DNA from: a virus
Taxonomy: Duplodnaviria; Caudoviricetes
Reading direction: 5' to 3' (one strand)
Length of the DNA stretch: 64,000 bases
IMG/VR virus record: IMGVR_UViG_3300021254_000026
Location: 32,001-96,000 of that record
Below the pieces are notes generated by a model that was given only the letters and a program-made list of their open reading frames with translations, searched no databases and was not told the origin of the DNA. The translations under genes were made by a program, and so were the position numbers. Shown here one piece after another: positions 15,350 to 56,139 of the stretch; the first letter of the stretch is position 1; the number at the start of each line of letters is the position of its first letter.

Positions 15350-16069
15350 ATGAAACATTTAATATAGAACTCACTTACTGATGGAGCGGGTGTTAAAAGT
15401 AATTATTTTAATTTAATTCTTTAGAAGAACGGACAAAAAATATTCTAGAAATTTGGAATTAGTAGTAGTTGTGAAAATAATAGTCAATGTAAACTTTTAG
15501 AAACTTATCCTATTTCTACGTTTGCTACGGAATATAGTGAAAATAATGAACCTGTTCCTTATGTTATAATATTAGACAAAAAGTTTTCGGAATTATCAGC
15601 AGATGGTTATATCGCAATTATATCTCCAGATGATTCCGAACCAACTAGTATTGGAATAATTGAATAGGTTATAGAAGGAATAACAGATTACTAGTATTAT
15701 GTAAGGATGGATAATGGATTATATATTACATTAGAACATGATCCTAATACAGGTAATATTAGGTTTATTATGGATAATGTTACGAATGTTGTTGGAAAAT
15801 ATCTTTTAGACCGATCAAACTTAAGTTTTACTTTTTATTATCCTTGTATTGAATATACAAATGAACAAGCTGGAAGTTACGAATATGGATATTTAAATTA
15901 CGATCCATTATATTTTAAAGAACAATCTGATACAGAACTCATTTTATAGACTTTAAATGGAGTAGATGTAATTATAGACAAAAATAATCCTGAAAATTGT
16001 AGAATTAATTTAAATGGATTAGAGCCTGAAAATGTAGTTCTGATAATAAAAATAGAACCTGGAAAATGA
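15350..16069 (+). CDS. Hypothetical protein, TAG-recoded (6 TAG)
   Basis: 240-codon frame containing ORF 15707-15949; ATGA overlap with next gene. Confidence 0.75.
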
Positions 16070-16743
16070 AATATTTAAGAAAAGTATATTATCCACATAA
16101 GTCTAATGGAGATCCAGATTTTAGTTAGCTTTCAAATATATTTGATGCTAATGATTATTATAATACGTCTAATGGAATTGGAATTGATAGTAACAATTCA
16201 GTAGAAGTTGTTGTAGGTATAAATATATTAAATAATCCTGATCTTTGGAGACAAGCGCAGTTATTTTATTCTAGTGTAATAGTTCCTTAGTATGACATTA
16301 GATATAACAAAAATTCTAATACTTCTGTTTATACTGGTTATGGTTCTCTTTATTCTGATTATATAACATTTGGAAATCCTGGATCTAATTATATACACAG
16401 CATCTATGGAGAAGATTCTTATAATAAAGTGAAATCTAATTGTATTTATGATATAAATAATTTAGAAAACAGCGACCATCTTGTAGGAATAGATATTGGC
16501 CCTGAAGTTGCATTTTGCAGTTAGCTGTTTCAAAGTAATGCTTCAGTTAAGTATATAACTTTTTATTCGAGTGTTCCAGTTCAATATGATGTTGAAGGAC
16601 AATAGTCAAATTATTCAATTAATTTTAGTAATTCATTAAAAGCTATTGTAGTTGATGATGTATATTATTCTAATTTCAAAAATAGTTTAGCATTTAGTTT
16701 AGTATCTAATAAGATTATGAAAATATCCCAGGTATCTTTGTAA
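16066..16743 (+). CDS. Hypothetical protein with LRR-cap-like C terminus, TAG-recoded (4 TAG)
   Basis: 226-codon frame; C terminus LKAIVVDDVYYSNFK...SNKIMKISQ resembles a BspA cap. Confidence 0.7.
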
Positions 16744-16799
16744 TATTATCAGAATTTGTGAAGTCTAAAGTAATAACGAGAAACGGAGATCATTTATTG

Positions 16800-17025
16800 T
16801 AATAAAAAGCAGGACGGCTGTGTTATGAGACTAATTAGGAGTTGAATCAGTGCTACAACTAACATTGCATAATCAGTCCAGTGGACATCGGACTTCACTA
16901 ATTCAACTTTCCGATATACTACTATCATAATCGCGGAATTAGATTTCTTCGGCTCTTTGATTTAATCTCCTTATCTGACAGAGAACCGAATTAATTCTAT
17001 AATGCAGTCAGGCCTGCTTTTATTA
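16800..17025 (+). ncRNA. Structured rod-like ncRNA of unknown family
   Basis: Ends pair (AAAAGCAGG/CCTGCTTTT; GGCTGTGTTATG/TATAATGCAGTC with G-U pairs favouring the + strand); no long ORF. Confidence 0.55.
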
Positions 17026-17073
17026 TATTTCATACACTCACAAATATATTTTGTACATCAGAACTAAAACCAT

Positions 17074-17104
17074 TTTGATATTTTGAGAATAACAAATAAC
17101 TTTG
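17074..17104 (+). promoter_or_regulatory. Bacteroidota sigmaA-type promoter (-33/-7)
   Basis: TTTG-N19-TAACTTTG ending 26 nt before ATG 17131. Confidence 0.7.
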
Positions 17105-17130
17105 TAATATCAAACTTTAAATAGAATAAT

Positions 17131-18621
17131 ATGGCAGAAACAACTTATTACAAGAAACCAATGTCCGTAGTCAGATATGATGAAAATGGATAGAAGTATT
17201 TAGAACTTTTGCCAACTACTGTAGAAGGGAATAGAGCATATACAGATTATGGTGAAGTTCAAGATATGCGTCCATTAGATAATACTGTTCAACAGAGAAG
17301 ATGGTACACAGCCACTAACGCAAAGAAAATGAATAGAGCACTTCCATATGTTGCTGGAACATTAGCAAGTCCTGTTATGTTAGTAGGAGGAATTGGTGCA
17401 ACTGCAAGCGAAGCTCTTGTACCTACTGTAGGTAAAGCATTGAACTTTGGAATGAGAGCTATGACTCCATCCTCATATACAGGATTATTTGGAACAGGAA
17501 CATATAATACCGCCTTAGGTGGAAGTGGAGCAAGTGCCCTCGGAGCAGCTGCTGATGCAGGATTAGCAAGTTACTATGCAGCTTCGGCAAAAAGAGCCTA
17601 TGATAATAATCCTAACTTAAGACATGGAATTGAGTTGGGATTAGCTGCATTGCCTGCGATTGCTACTTCAAAAGTTGTGTGGAAAGCAAGAATACCCCGA
17701 TTTAACCCTATTTACGAATCCGATATTCCAGAATTGTAGAAACTATTAGACGAAAATAAATTCGTAGAAAAAATAACTTCAGACGGACAAAAGATAAAGA
17801 TGTATTTTCCTTCAGGAAACAAACAGCCGATGAGAGAAGATGAATTAATAAATTTACTTGCTCGATATAATAAACGTACATTATCTCCTTCAGAAATAGA
17901 ATCTGCTAAAAAAGCTCCTGATATAATCAATCAATTTGAAAAAGAAGGTATAAAAGGATTTACAGATGATTTTTGGTTTTAGGGATTAGATAGAGAAATT
18001 ACTTAGTTAGACAAAGATATATTTCATAGTCATATACCTGAATATTACGATTTATATTAGGATCTTACTAAATCTGGTAATTTAATTAAGAAAGGGGATA
18101 CTTGGTATGGAAAATTTTCTAACGGTATGCAAGAAGTACATCCAGAGGAATATATTGTTGCTCACTCTAAAGCATTTATTAATTCTGGTTTAAAATATGA
18201 TGGATAGAATAGAATGAGTGCAATGAGTAAAGATAAATATGATGAATTTATTAAAAACGGAGGACTTGGAGCAACAACGTGGACTACAAACAATTCTAAA
18301 CAAGGTAGTGTGTTTCTAAAAGAAAGAGAACCTGGACGTCTTGTTCAAAATTTAGTTAGTACTGACGCTCCTTAGATAAAAATATCAACAGAGAATGCAA
18401 AAGTAGGCAGAGAAGTAGAACACGGAATTTAGTATTCTCCGAATGTAAATTACAGACAGACAACTGGAGATTATATGTTATTTGGTCACGATATGTAGAT
18501 GAAAGCACTTCGTGGGAATAATGGAGATTTTAATATGAGAAATAGACATTACTTACGAAATTTTGGAGTTCCTATAATTTTAGGAGGCAGCTTAGTTGGT
18601 AATATAAGAAGTAATAATTAA
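17131..18621 (+). CDS. 496-aa TAG-recoded protein (9 TAG); Gly/Ala-rich hydrophobic N half, polyvalent-protein-like C-terminal motif
   Basis: Single frame joining ORFs 17209 and 17800; (TAG)MKALRGNNGDF resembles QIKSxxxNNGxF. Confidence 0.8.
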
Positions 18622-20169: not shown

Positions 20170-20254
20170 GATTTTCCGTATCTTGCACAAGGTTGTGAGA
20201 ACAGAATCTCAAATTTTATTTTGATTTTTCATGCAAAGATGATATATTAATTAA

Positions 20255-20476
20255 GTTGTGATGAAATATTTTTGAAAATTTGTAAGACGAGGTTTCGATT
20301 ACCTCCTAGTCCACTTTAGGATTTTTATTTTATGGGCTAGTTAAGGGATTGATTGCAAACAAGTAGAAATTATGGAGCAACAAGCCAAAATAAATGGCAA
20401 TAAATCAATTTTTCTTGATAGAGTCACTAGGTTGGCTGCTTGATAGCGTTAATAGTGAAGAACGAAATCTTCACTA
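20255..20476 (+). ncRNA. ssrA: Circularly permuted (two-piece) tmRNA; tag (A)GNKSIFLDRVTRLAA
   Basis: T arm GAGGT-TTCGATT-ACCTC + CTAGTCC-A (20306-20313) precedes 5' GGGCTAG (20334-20340) with G3:U70; resume context ATAAAT|GGC at 20396; tag ends LAA. Confidence 0.88.
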
Positions 20477-20479
20477 ATT

Positions 20480-20552
20480 GCTTCGTTAACTCAATTGGTA
20501 GAGTAGCTGAATTGTAATCAGCCTGTTGTGGGTTCGATTCCTACACGAAGCT
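20480..20552 (+). tRNA. tRNA-Thr(UGU)
   Basis: Cloverleaf GCTTCGT...GCTGA-ATTGTAA-TCAGC...GTGGG-TTCGATT-CCTAC-ACGAAGC. Confidence 0.9.
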
Positions 20553-20560
20553 CTAAAAAT

Positions 20561-20633
20561 GCAGATATAGCTCAATTGGTAGAGTGCAAGTTTTCCAAAC
20601 TTGAAGTTGCGGGATCGTACCCCGTTATCTGCT
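20561..20633 (+). tRNA. tRNA-Gly(UCC)
   Basis: Cloverleaf GCAGATA...CAAGT-TTTCCAA-ACTTG...TATCTGC-T; atypical T loop ATCGTAC. Confidence 0.88.
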
Positions 20634-20683
20634 CAAAAAGTTCCTCCAAGATACTTTTAATAAACTTTAAATTTATTTAACGT

Positions 20684-20995
20684 ATGAAAAGAATTTTAAT
20701 TTTATTAACAAGTTTAATTGTTGGATTATCTGTTTATTCTGTAGAAGGATTTGATACTCTTAATGTTGATGTTCCTTGTAACATTAAAATCTTTAAAACA
20801 GATGGATATTTAGTAAGAGTATTAAATAAAAACGGAAAGCCGAGTAAAAATGTTACTTGGGAAATCAAAGATAGTGTTTTACAAATTAAAGGATCTGGTG
20901 AAGATGCAAATGAAACTACCGTAGTTGTATTTGCTCCAAATGATCAAAAAATATTGATAGACACTAAAAAGTACGATTTAAAAGAGACAGAGTAA
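20684..20995 (+). CDS. Secreted GIN-domain (DUF2807-like) protein
   Basis: Signal peptide; FDTLNVDVPCNIKI...WEIKDSVLQI. Confidence 0.55.
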   Translation: MKRILILLTSLIVGLSVYSVEGFDTLNVDVPCNIKIFKTDGYLVRVLNKNGKPSKNVTWEIKDSVLQIKGSGEDANETTVVVFAPNDQKILIDTKKYDLKETE

Positions 20996-21073
20996 TTTAA
21001 CAATTAATGCAGGAAAGGGAATTTGCCCTTTCCTATTGAGAGAGGAAAAGATAATTATTTTTAACTTAAAATT

Positions 21074-52735: not shown

Positions 52736-55700
52736 ATGATAGTTGAAATATATGATTTAGAATGTCTATCTAATTTATTTACTTATACTGGATATATACC
52801 ACATACTAACGAATGGTTTCAATATGTAATATCTGATTGGAGAAATGATGCTGAAGAGTTATATAATCATTTAACTAGAGGAAATTTTATAATGTGTGGA
52901 TTTAATAACAACGCTTATGACTATCCTCTTCTTCATCATTTTCTTCGACATTTTAAAGGAGATTATGAATATAAATCAGGTTTAGACATAGCAACTAAAC
53001 TTTATGAAAAATCTCAATATTTAATTGAAGAACAATTTACAGAGGTTAAAAAACCTTTAATTCCCCAAATTGATTTATATAAGATATGGCATTACAACAA
53101 TAAGGCACGTCATAGTTCGTAAACTAAAATTAGCGAACTTTAAACCAAATAAATTGCGGGGAACCCCTTAGAGCTTAATCTACAGCACATTACAGTAATG
53201 TAAATGGTAGCAAATAAGTTAATGCTTATTGAATTGTAAAAACGATTAAGATTGGGCAATCACATTAAAACGCAGCCAAGTTTCCATTTTATGGAAAAAG
53301 GTTCAACGACTATCCTTTTATAGGAGTAGAAATGTGTTTAATCATCATATTTCGAAAAATTTGGCATAATATTTTGATACTTTGATAATTGATAATATAT
53401 TTATAATAATAAAATTAAAAGTTATTATGAATATAAAAAAATTATCAGAAATACCTACATGTAGTGGAATTTATCGTTTTACTAATACAGAAAATGGAAA
53501 AATCTATGTAGGTAGCGCAAAAAACCTTAGAAAGAGATACGGAAAACATATAAGTTGTCTCAGATTAAATAAACATCATTCTAAACATTTTCAAAATGCT
53601 TGGAATAAATACGGGGAAGATAAATTTAAATATGATATTATTGAATTTGTTGATGATATTTCAATTCTCTTAGTAAGAGAACAATATTATCTTGATACAT
53701 TATTATTTGCTCAAGAATACATTAGAAAAGAATCTAATAAATTTCTTGAATTAGGTTATAATATAAATCCTTGTTCTTCTAATAGATTGGGTGCAGTTCA
53801 ATCAGAAGAATCTATAAGAAAAATAATATTAGCTAAAGCAATTCCAATACTTCAATATGATTTTAATGGAAATTTTATAGCTGAATATATATCTTGTGGA
53901 GAAGCTTCTAGATTTTTAAATATAGATGTTCATCTCATAGCTTCATGTTGTAAACATCAACAAGAATATACACATGAATTTTTCTTTATTTATAAAAAAG
54001 AATTAGAGAATTACAAAGATTATTTTGAATCTTTAAAAGAATCTCCATTTATACCACAAGTTTGGAATAAAGGATTGAAAGGAATTAGACCCAATAAAGA
54101 TGATTGTTTGATAGTGTTTGATAGATATGGAAGATATATTAATACTTTTGCTTATCAAGTCGATATAGCAAAATTTATTGGATGTACAACTGCAAATTTA
54201 TCTAAAGCTAAAAACATAAAAATAATAAAAAATTATTTAGTATTTGATTTAAATTTTGATTATCAATCTAAAATAGAAGAAATTAGAAACGAATATTCTT
54301 TTATTTACACTTTAAATCAAATTCCAGATAAAATAATGATGTACGATAATTTTGAGAACTTTATTAGTGGATTTGAAAGTGTTCATGAAGCAAGTCTAAT
54401 AACAGGATTAAAAGAAGCTTCTATATATGATGTTTTATGTGGAAGAAGAAAACAAAATAAAGGTTTTATTTTTAAATATTATGATGATATAGTCTAATCT
54501 ACATAGAAATATGTAGGTTATCAAAGTTAGAGTGATTAACTAACATAAAATTTGATAACACAATGTAAAAGACCTTGAAATAGCAATGAGAATGGATAAT
54601 GTTGAAGAAATGCCTATTCATCATACTCATTGGTGTAATAAAGAAGATTGTAATTTGATATTAGAGTATAACAAAAATGACGTAGAAGCTACTTATAGAT
54701 TTCTTCTTGTCACTTTAGGCAAAACAGACTATCCGTTATATAAAGGAAAAAATAAACTTCAACTTCGATTCGATTTAAATAAAAAATTTGGAGTAAACGT
54801 AACTAATATGGGCGATGTTCCAATGGGTGAAGAATTAATGTTACAATTATATTCTAGAGCCGTTGGAATAAATCCATATGAACTTAAAAGACAAGGTGGA
54901 ACACCACGCTCCGAAATTAAATTGAAAGATTGTATTCCATATTGGTGTAATATAAAATCTAAAGAATTTAATAAATTTCTAGATAAAATTAAATCTACTA
55001 TTATTAAAGGTGAAAAAGGAGAATTTTCTTATTCTGTAATTTTTCATGAAAATAAGTTTGATTTTGGAATTGGGGGTGCTCATAGTTCAATAAAACCAGG
55101 AGTATATGAATCAAATGATTATTGGCAAATAGTAGATTTTGATATTTCATCACTATATCCAAGTGTAGCTAAATCTTTAGGTTTATATCCAGCACATCTT
55201 GGTCCAGAATTTATGCAATTATATTCTCAGTTTATCGACAAACGAATTGCTGAAAAACATAAACCTAAAAATGAACGAGATAATGTTCTTATTGAAGGAT
55301 TTAAACTTATACTCAATGGAACCTACGGTAAGAGTAATGAAGATAAGTCTTTTCTTTATGATCCAATGTATACTTTTAGTACAACTATTGCAGGACAACT
55401 ATTTATATGTATGTGGGCTGAAAGAATGGTAAAAGCTTGTCCAGAACTAGTGTTCTTGCAAACAAATACGGATGGAATAACCGTAAGAATACCTAGAAAA
55501 TCCTTACAAGCTATTAGAGAAGTTAATGAACAATTAACTAAAGAAACAACACTAGTTATTGAAGAAGCGTTCTATTCTAAGATGTTTTTAAGGGATGTAA
55601 ATAATTACGGAGCTGTATATGAAGATTCTACACCTGATAATGAACATATTAAATTAAAAGGAGACTTTGAGATAGATAAAGAATTTCACAAAGATCCTTC

Positions 55701-56139
55701 TATGAGAATTGTTCCTCTTGCTGTAAAAGAATATTTTGTATATGGAATTCCTGTTGAAGAAACAATAAAAAATAACAGAGATATTTTTAATTTTTGTATA
55801 AGATTAAAAACAAATTCTGGATGTACTGCATATTTCAAGTATTTTGACGAAAACAAGCACCTAAAGGATAAACCTCTAGATAGAACAACTCGATATTACA
55901 TAAGTAATGGTTATATAGGATTAGATCCTACGTCAGAAAATGGAATTATAACTAAAAATTTCAACGACGGAAGAATAACTGGAGTAAATGTTGGGTTTTC
56001 AGCAACTTTATTTAATAAAGTTATAAAATTAGATAATTGGGAAGATTATCATATTGATTATAAATTTTATATATCTGAAGCTAATAAATTAAAGAACCCG
56101 TTAGCTATTAAACAATTAGATTTATTTAGTGATTTATGA
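52736..56139 (+). CDS. Family B DNA polymerase, spliced: exons 52736-53120 and 54566-56139
   Basis: Exo YDLE, FNNNAYD; pol DISSLYP, KLILNGTYGK, NTDG; junction ARHSSLKDLEIAMRMD. Confidence 0.92.
53121..54565 (+). mobile_element. Group I intron in the DNA polymerase gene
   Basis: P1 AGTTCGT/GCGAACT with U.G pair; AAATTGCGGG, CGCAGCC, TTCAACGACTA, GATATAGTCT; terminal G at 54565. Confidence 0.92.
53427..54497 (+). CDS. Intron-encoded GIY-YIG homing endonuclease
   Basis: SGIYRFTN...IYVGSA, RYGKH, REQYY, GYNI, NUMOD1-like repeats. Confidence 0.92.
   Translation: MNIKKLSEIPTCSGIYRFTNTENGKIYVGSAKNLRKRYGKHISCLRLNKHHSKHFQNAWNKYGEDKFKYDIIEFVDDISILLVREQYYLDTLLFAQEYIRKESNKFLELGYNINPCSSNRLGAVQSEESIRKIILAKAIPILQYDFNGNFIAEYISCGEASRFLNIDVHLIASCCKHQQEYTHEFFFIYKKELENYKDYFESLKESPFIPQVWNKGLKGIRPNKDDCLIVFDRYGRYINTFAYQVDIAKFIGCTTANLSKAKNIKIIKNYLVFDLNFDYQSKIEEIRNEYSFIYTLNQIPDKIMMYDNFENFISGFESVHEASLITGLKEASIYDVLCGRRKQNKGFIFKYYDDIV

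Follow-up and report, generated by a model that had tools for sequence, protein, structure and literature searches.

The permuted tmRNA locus and its phage

The window analysed here is a 64-kb stretch of DNA, bases 32001-96000 of the 108-kb IMG/VR viral record IMGVR_UViG_3300021254_000026; positions given without a locus name are those of the window. At 20252-20479 (+) it carries what is very probably a genuine, selected gene for a circularly permuted (two-piece) transfer-messenger RNA (tmRNA, ssrA). A first-pass annotation, made from the sequence alone, had placed a phage-encoded, permuted and pseudoknot-free tmRNA at 20255-20476, and its coordinates and order of elements all hold on re-reading. 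The acceptor piece lies upstream of the coding piece, which includes the open reading frame (ORF) for the peptide tag:

20252-20313, +: acceptor piece (3' tRNA-like module), with P2 strands, T arm, acceptor 3' strand and A73
20252-59, 20266-73 and 20279-85, +: P2 strands of the acceptor piece
20289-20305, +: T arm GAGGT-TTCGATT-ACCTC (5-bp stem, 7-nt loop)
20306-20312, +: acceptor 3' strand CTAGTCC
20313, +: discriminator A73
20314-20333, +: intervening spacer of 20 nt, AU-rich (U-rich)
20334-20395, +: 5' part of the coding piece, with acceptor 5' strand, D-loop analogue, P2 strands and a short linker, lacking pseudoknot PK1
20334-20340, +: acceptor 5' strand GGGCTAG, forming a 7-bp stem with CTAGTCC (G3:U70)
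within 20334-20395, after the acceptor 5' strand, +: D-loop analogue TTAAGGGATTGA
20353-59, 20366-73 and 20377-84, +: P2 strands of the coding piece
20279-85 with 20353-59: P2 segment TTTGTAA/TTGCAAA
20266-73 with 20366-73: P2 segment ATATTTTT/GAAATTAT
20255-59 with 20377-81: P2 segment GTTGT/GCAAC
20396-20446, +: tag ORF GNKSIFLDRVTRLAA as given by ARAGORN (GGC AAT AAA ... GCT GCT, then TGA TAG; tag codons 20396-20440)
20422-26 with 20433-37: small covarying hairpin inside the tag ORF
20447-20479, +: 3' tail with a terminal 9-bp hairpin, loop ACGAAA (stem 20453-61 with 20468-76)
20480-20553, +: tRNA-Thr(TGT), directly 3' of the permuted tmRNA in every family member
20561-20634, +: tRNA-Gly(TCC)
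20220-20250, +: candidate promoter TTTG-N19-TATATTAA, read from the sequence, just upstream of the tmRNA gene

The gene form of a tmRNA does not always encode CCA (PMC11915505); here only the first C is encoded at the end of the acceptor piece, and the phage's own tRNAs are also without an encoded CCA. Six bases separate the stop codons from the terminal hairpin, which ends three bases before tRNA-Thr. The tRNA-Gly gene is probably in the same transcription unit as the permuted tmRNA and tRNA-Thr. A scan for sigma-70-like sites also yields TTGATT-16-TATATT with TG at 20221-20248; promoter-like sites in the region are not above chance in number, and the candidate promoter at 20220-20250 is proposed from its position only.

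The Rfam 15 model for permuted tmRNA (tmRNA_permuted, RF04321; gathering cut-off 47 bits) matches the locus with 47.3 bits and aligns with it at every model position (1-213); E is 3e-6 for the window of 64 kb. ARAGORN run with -ps (95% stringency) makes a 'Permuted' call with the domains as read by eye and the tag GNKSIFLDRVTRLAA followed by a double stop. The first-pass annotation had named both tools as checks, and both call a permuted tmRNA (ARAGORN at this setting only). Folding of the single sequence recovers the acceptor stem and a P2 of 7+7+5 bp, with z = -2.8. The locus is far beyond chance.

The record (108 kb, estimated 62% complete, about 29% G+C) encodes RNR, NAMPT, GroEL, RtcB, a ligase and a family-A polymerase preceded by a homing-endonuclease gene. 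Among its 12 tRNAs is an amber suppressor (anticodon CTA) outside the window, at G000:C1:10760-10834 (-) (L006:10760-10834). Reading TAG as a sense codon opens two minus-strand ORFs of 2856 and 1644 codons (L005:6423-14993 (-) and L005:434-5368 (-)) that contain 74 and 35 in-frame TAGs, respectively; neither of these giant late-strand ORFs has a PHROG match. The terminase, with TAG read as Gln, matches phrog_6681. By tblastn, its matches among crAss-like phages (those of Bacteroides, Flavobacterium and Azobacteroides) are 25-28% identical, and its best matches are two unclassified, unannotated human faecal phage contigs (45-47% identity). A TAG-recoded phage of about 171 kb, related to crAss-like phages and of gut or rumen type, is a fair description as judged from these sequences, and its hosts are likely Bacteroidota. 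The origin of the contig, the terminase, the suppressor tRNA and the TAG-containing ORFs bear out the claim that the gene is phage-encoded.

Homologues and covariation

We reached homologues through a 103-residue protein encoded just downstream, which led to syntenic loci in other assemblies. An independent ENA assembly, with a scaffold of 170,997 bp, agrees completely (100% identity) over 6.3 kb spanning the locus, so the permuted order did not arise as an artefact in one assembly. Elsewhere, at some place within 16020-17684, an indel sets this scaffold (L188) apart from the IMG/VR record. Near-identical strains from three other samples (L193-L195; 99.2-99.4% identity overall) have their sole tmRNA difference in the spacer. 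Upstream of 19999 these strains diverge wholly from the window (a mosaic breakpoint). Three diverged syntenic lineages come from Logan DRR868879 (L190), ERZ27247102 (L192) and ERZ842383 (L189, a 145-kb contig), with homologous genes at these positions:

L189:3506-3747, permuted tmRNA gene
L190:3481-3720, permuted tmRNA gene
L192:155-384, permuted tmRNA gene

All three have the same permuted gene, with tRNA-Thr directly downstream and, upstream, a tRNA that occupies the position of the candidate promoter of the window gene. ARAGORN with -ps makes the permuted call in each of them too. RF04321 scores are 57.2 bits for L189, 50.0 for L192 and 49.3 for L190, and all four lineages pass narrowly.

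The pairing is preserved through extensive sequence change. The acceptor stems of the four lineages are GGGCTAG/CTAGTCC, GGGCTCG/CGAGTCC, GGGCTAT/ATAGTCC and GGGCTTA/TAGGTCC, and their T stems are GAGGT/ACCTC, GAGTC/GACTC, ATGGG/CCCAT and GACGG/CCGTC. RNAalifold, given no prior structure, returns the acceptor stem, the T arm, three P2 segments, the ORF hairpin and the terminal hairpin, with compensatory changes in 24 of 57 pairs. Over the 49 pairs that define the structure, 93.4% of cells are paired (33-46% with slid partners), and 23 pairs are changed on both sides, compared with 2-5 in the slid controls. None of 500 shuffles matches the observed paired, both-sides and covariation values. In cofolding, the heterodimer of the two pieces is favoured in all four lineages, at -9.7 to -13.7 kcal/mol versus -4 to -8 with a shuffled acceptor piece. 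Covariation in related phages had been put forward by the first-pass annotation as a check on its structure, and the structure is confirmed by it, including the extended P2 pairing between the pieces. The alanine identity elements that it pointed out are likewise conserved: G3:U70 is present in 5/5 sequences (alignment columns 72/98), and the A after the acceptor strand (A73) is invariant.

An internal ORF encodes the tag; it opens with a resume codon and closes with a stop, and the peptide has a hydrophobic C-terminal end with AA as its last residues. The tags are GNNNYFLDRANRLAA in L190 and L192 and DKHETFLDRATRLAA in L189, each followed by the double stop, and the family pattern is xxxxxFLDRxxRLAA plus two stops. 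The frame is gap-free in the four lineages, the double stop is kept, and synonymous changes (GAT/GAC, TTG/TTA) occur. We infer that the tag ORF is translated, because its frame, resume context, C-terminal RLAA and double stop are conserved with synonymous changes. The first-pass annotation had proposed that the phage has its own tag and that homologues failing to conserve the frame would count against this; the homologues conserve it without indels.

Conservation differs between modules. The spacer is the least conserved (35-63% identity between lineages; 14-20 nt long in the homologues), and the tRNA-like and P2 modules are 46-79% identical with pairing preserved. Identity is 71-76% in the tag and 88-100% in the stop codons and tail hairpin, compared with merely 38-74% in the adjoining tRNA-Thr. 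A near-invariant stretch, GCTGCT-TGA-TAG-CGT-TAA-T plus the hairpin (20438-20476 in the window, and in L189, L190 and L192), contains three in-frame stops. Such conservation of the tag end, stops and hairpin points to either a sequence-specific constraint or module-wise exchange. The tag and linker of L190 are identical to those of L192, yet their tRNA-like domains differ, a combination that hints at acceptor and coding parts being exchanged as modules.

We found no family members in deposited phage genomes or elsewhere in IMG/VR. Probes for the invariant 3' module had no match in IMG/VR, deposited phage genomes or species genomes, nor did an exact 28-nt T-arm/acceptor probe in IMG/VR. The probe GGGNNNNTTAAGGGATTGATTG matched only a coding sequence (L004), and a junction pattern run on species genomes gave one chance match in GC-rich coding DNA (L198). 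A 'Permuted' call by ARAGORN at relaxed stringency in L097 is spurious.

Minimal architecture and origin of the permutation

Each of the four lineages has just 11-18 nt of linker from the last P2 strand to the resume codon, and the Rfam alignment deletes the hairpin that the model places between P2 and the resume codon. Because of this short linker, and because a single hairpin follows the ORF before the gene abuts tRNA-Thr, there is no room for PK1-PK4. We are thus confident that this is a permuted tmRNA without any pseudoknot, and the first-pass description of it as pseudoknot-free and minimal stands. The pseudoknots typical of tmRNAs (four as a rule, with PK1 between P2 and the ORF) are missing in all lineages; their number is known to vary, so membership in the tmRNA family is retained. 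Two pseudoknot-like pairings (linker AGCCAA with UUGGCU, and hairpin loop with T-loop) were dropped for want of covariation.

The predicted lengths of the mature pieces are about 62 nt, CCA not counted, and about 146 nt, or about 208 nt in total. At this size the RNA ranks with the smallest tag-encoding tmRNAs on record; a survey from 2005 gave 250 nt as the minimum for a tmRNA with an ORF (PMC1168896). In E. coli, PK1 is reported to be needed for tagging unless a stable hairpin takes its place; PK2-PK4 can be replaced, and pseudoknots are fewer in two-piece tmRNAs (PMC3968760). Work on E. coli tmRNAs with PK2-4 replaced or PK1 exchanged for a hairpin (Nameki 2000, Wower 2004, Tanner 2006), as reported in PMC3968760, indicates that a tRNA-like domain, P2 and ORF can suffice and, in that account, that pseudoknots chiefly aid folding. 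Those RNAs are laboratory constructs and the jakobid mitochondrial tmRNA is an ORF-less relic, whereas the window RNA is natural, bears an ORF and has no replacement hairpin upstream of it. We found no natural ORF-bearing tmRNA without any pseudoknot described in the literature. A selected natural tmRNA lacking PK1-PK4 implies a minimal working architecture of tRNA-like domain, P2, ORF and one hairpin, and its small size would suit it to structural and biochemical study.

Two-piece tmRNAs are a textbook case of gene permutation, known from three main bacterial clades and from phage copies derived from these. The alphaproteobacterial, betaproteobacterial and cyanobacterial (alpha, beta and cyano) forms (RF01849, RF01850 and RF01851; Keiler et al. 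2000 and Sharkady & Williams 2004, as cited in PMC11915505) share with the window gene the order 3' half, spacer, 5' half, P2 and tag. Also shared are the joining of the pieces by acceptor stem and P2, G3:U70, A73 and the reduced number of pseudoknots, and the window gene passes RF04321. Unlike them, the window gene has a Gly (GGC) resume codon, lacks even PK1 and is shorter, and all three lineage models miss the family. In the window and homologues, the beta model (cut-off 84 bits) gives 33.9 and 23.1 bits and the alpha model (cut-off 50) 30.7 and 16.2, all as partial matches; the cyano model has no match.

Two-piece tmRNAs in phages have been described before, mostly in marine and other aquatic ones (PMC9004378). 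In that survey, 53 of 133 unique phage tmRNAs were two-piece, and 50 of the 53 were aquatic, grouping with alpha or cyano (PMC9004378). The genes of aquatic myophages (OM43 phage Melnitz, pelagimyophages and cyanophages; PMC9004378) resemble the window gene in being phage-borne, permuted and of ARAGORN type, and both probably use host SmpB and host tRNA-processing enzymes. The myophage genes group with alpha or cyano hosts, are larger and in some cases have a glutamine riboswitch, whereas the window gene falls in neither lineage. A 2025 tmRNA database holds 79 phage tmRNAs; for Bacteroidota it catalogues 24,454 tmRNA genes, of which 24,380 are one-piece and 48 permuted, the latter without discussion (PMC11915505). 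The first-pass annotation knew of no tmRNA of this kind in crAss-like phages, and in agreement we found no permuted tmRNA described from them in the literature.

The relatives of the phage do carry one-piece tmRNAs. Searching with the terminase brought up 62 related IMG/VR contigs, of which several measure 160-185 kb and have terminal repeats, and we scanned 50 with RF04321 and with RF00023, the model for one-piece tmRNA. Sub-threshold RF04321 matches in 13 related records (18-31 bits) were, on inspection and by RF00023, the 3' ends of ordinary one-piece tmRNAs. Eleven of the 50 records have a one-piece tmRNA that exceeds the RF00023 cut-off, the top score being 96.5 bits, and further ones fall a little short of it; the one-piece genes include those of G046 (IMGVR_UViG_3300028832_000119; 67 bits), G029 (73 bits) and G052 (96.5 bits). 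These genes (L086-L099, e.g., L094:1501-1874, L093:1501-1870 (-) and L099:1501-1828 (-)) come from the same clade (TerL 44-76% identical). They have tags that start with Gly from GGC (GNK..., GKN... or GNS...; GNKAKTVTIGSRSFRMAA, GKNNVSFAITSYRVAA, GNSHRNIISLYNERKAA) and end in AA, and they have tRNA neighbours, as the window gene does. They differ from it in their standard order, a length of 370-570 nt, the presence of PK1 and further pseudoknot regions, and another tRNA array. G046, whose TerL is 74% identical to that of the window phage, encodes a 374-nt standard tmRNA with the tag GNKAKTVTIGSRSFRMAA. Three of its features recur in the window gene: the T-arm stem (GAGGT/ACCTC), the 3'-terminal TCCACTTTA and, as resume context, the 14-mer TAAATGGCAATAAA. 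In G046 and G005 the one-piece gene sits within the tRNA array Glu-Ala-(Arg)-Asp-[tmRNA]-Ser-Val, the usual place in the sister clade. In the 183-kb complete relative G008, the array place taken by the one-piece tmRNA in sister phages is a 243-nt Asp-Ile gap (L102:1881-2124) that has no tmRNA-like features; thus, tmRNA presence varies within the sister clade. No permuted tmRNA was found in a polymerase relative with a complete 99-kb genome.

From these comparisons, the window gene probably arose apart from the alpha, beta and cyano forms, and derivation from Bacteroidota-style one-piece tmRNAs like those of the sister phages appears most likely. The independent permutation proposed in the first pass is thus likely, given the failure of the lineage models and the Gly resume context and T arm shared with the sister genes; shared synteny does not back it. 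If true, a further permutation inside crAss-related phages, with likely hosts that use one-piece tmRNA, would show that gene permutation recurs readily in mobile genomes.

A T-arm probe run on viral and metagenome contigs returned 67 loci, and the T arm was rejected as a clade marker, being common to many unrelated tmRNAs. Other permuted tmRNAs that do not fit alpha, beta or cyano are present on tRNA-rich, phage-like metagenome contigs (L153:7865-8071 (-), L165:4433-4690 (+) and L162:1745-2118 (-)). The tags of L153 and L165 are Bacteroidota-style (GNENSRYALAA and GNNNNYALAA). A further locus, L158 (about 2218-2785 of the reverse strand), looks permuted by eye and is missed by both Rfam and ARAGORN.

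Proposed working, alternatives and the TAG code

We predict, with a probability of roughly 0.85, that the locus yields a functional two-piece tmRNA of a TAG-recoded, crAss-related phage, with the separate origin given above and the following pathway. In known two-piece systems, tRNA enzymes cut the precursor, pairing holds the pieces together, AlaRS acts through G3:U70 and SmpB delivers the RNA (Keiler 2000, as cited in PMC11915505 and PMC3968760); processing, CCA addition, charging, SmpB use and tagging would here follow by analogy. A single precursor would be transcribed together with tRNA-Thr and tRNA-Gly. Host RNase P would cut 5' of G1 (20334) and 5' of tRNA-Thr (20480), the latter cut setting the 3' end of the tail. 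Removal of the spacer (20314-20333) would take RNase P at its 3' edge and trimming back to A73 (20313) at its 5' edge, after which the host CCA-adding enzyme would complete CCA at A73. The 5' end of the acceptor piece might derive from the upstream tRNA in the homologues, or from the promoter-like site at 20220-20250 in the window phage; in this scheme tRNA enzymes could make every end. Pairing in the acceptor stem (7 bp) and in P2 (about 20 bp) would hold the pieces of about 62 and 146 nt together; the short, variable spacer and the favourable heterodimer cofold give indirect support to cleavage into two paired RNAs. The RNA would be charged by host alanyl-tRNA synthetase (AlaRS) through G3:U70/A73. 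SmpB is presumed to be that of the host, because none (PF01668) was found in the 108-kb record. With it, the tmRNA would enter stalled ribosomes, resume at GGC, add (A)GNKSIFLDRVTRLAA and end at UGA.

Several points weigh against this prediction. ARAGORN at default stringency does not call the permuted tmRNA and reports two tRNAs only, and the Rfam scores barely exceed the cut-off; the family sits at the detection limit of present annotation tools. No SmpB was found in the 108-kb record, and the search for a second, standard one-piece tmRNA, which found none, covered 108 of about 171 kb. The T-loop of L189 is non-canonical (GGCAGUA) and that of L190 has 6 nt (UUCGAA). Given the E. coli requirement for PK1, a tmRNA lacking it might be impaired or work differently. 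Synteny between the window gene (before Thr-Gly) and the sister one-piece gene was looked for and not found, and with only four lineages known the origin is unproven.

The weak tool calls could be read as signs of a one-piece tmRNA that was rearranged and has lost its function, or of an assembly artefact, and one short variant contig (L196) has no tmRNA at the locus position. This reading is effectively refuted: the gene is identical in the independent 171-kb assembly, it recurs in the three other samples at 99.2-99.4% identity, and the diverged homologues keep order, pairing and frame with strong covariation. L196 itself (941 bp) is 99.8% identical to the window from inside tRNA-Thr on (20533-21053) and has a different 147-codon gene upstream; the permuted gene may be accessory, or the contig chimeric. 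A genuine two-piece tmRNA that was acquired already permuted, from the alpha, beta or cyano lineage or from a phage family like that of L153 and L165, and then shrunk, is unlikely. Alpha- and cyano-type two-piece tmRNAs are common in aquatic phages (PMC9004378), the best partial lineage-model matches are to beta and alpha, and the gene does not share the place of its one-piece counterparts. Unclassified permuted tmRNAs with tags of Bacteroidota style exist elsewhere too, and one of them, L153, agrees with the window gene in its T-arm stem and its 20-nt spacer. However, the lineage-model scores are far under their cut-offs, the Gly (GGC) resume codon and its context are as in the sister one-piece genes (14/14 nt identical to G046), and the sole alpha-type gene seen in the analysis (L123) has a tag starting with Ala (ANTK...). 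L153 and L165, moreover, retain a long segment between P2 and tag, with room for PK1, and their tags are unlike those of the window family.

Somewhat less probable again is a tmRNA-derived decoy or competitor that binds host SmpB, AlaRS or ribosomes and so damps or redirects host trans-translation, by which phage proteins stalled at in-frame UAG would otherwise be tagged, instead of being an efficient rescuer itself. In recoded E. coli, tmRNA rescues ribosomes at unassigned UAG, this tagging blocks UAG-containing viruses, and deletion of ssrA restores them (PMC6207430); the window phage has in-frame TAGs and a suppressor tRNA. A phage tmRNA lacking a coding sequence (DS6A) has been reported to inhibit host tmRNA (PMC11915505), and loss of PK1 might lower tagging activity. 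A pure decoy, however, would not need an ORF, whereas the tag frame, resume context, C-terminal RLAA and double stop are conserved with synonymous changes.

TAG reassignment by a phage should have two effects: it makes for non-stop read-through on host messages and risks tagging of the phage's own proteins at in-frame TAGs. By read-through, host messages ending in TAG would run to their 3' ends, and ribosomes on phage messages would pause at in-frame TAGs. The compact rescue RNA of the phage, with its own tag and a UGA stop, could then keep ribosomes free or out-compete host tmRNA. In this clade tmRNAs are common, and the window tag ends at UGA, ahead of UAG. A link between TAG recoding and the tmRNA is plausible, and we hold it only tentatively. 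It is similarly doubtful that the pseudoknot-free tmRNA, as a fourth, phage-internal permutation of a Bacteroidota-type one-piece gene, is kept because the phage reassigns TAG. The presence of a tmRNA in a TAG-recoded phage makes the relation between code change and ribosome rescue directly testable.

Elsewhere in the window, the homing-endonuclease gene (53382-54497; GIY-YIG/HNH-type matches) is followed by the C-terminal part of the polymerase at 54586-56139, an arrangement which suggests that the family-A DNA polymerase gene is split or interrupted by an intron.

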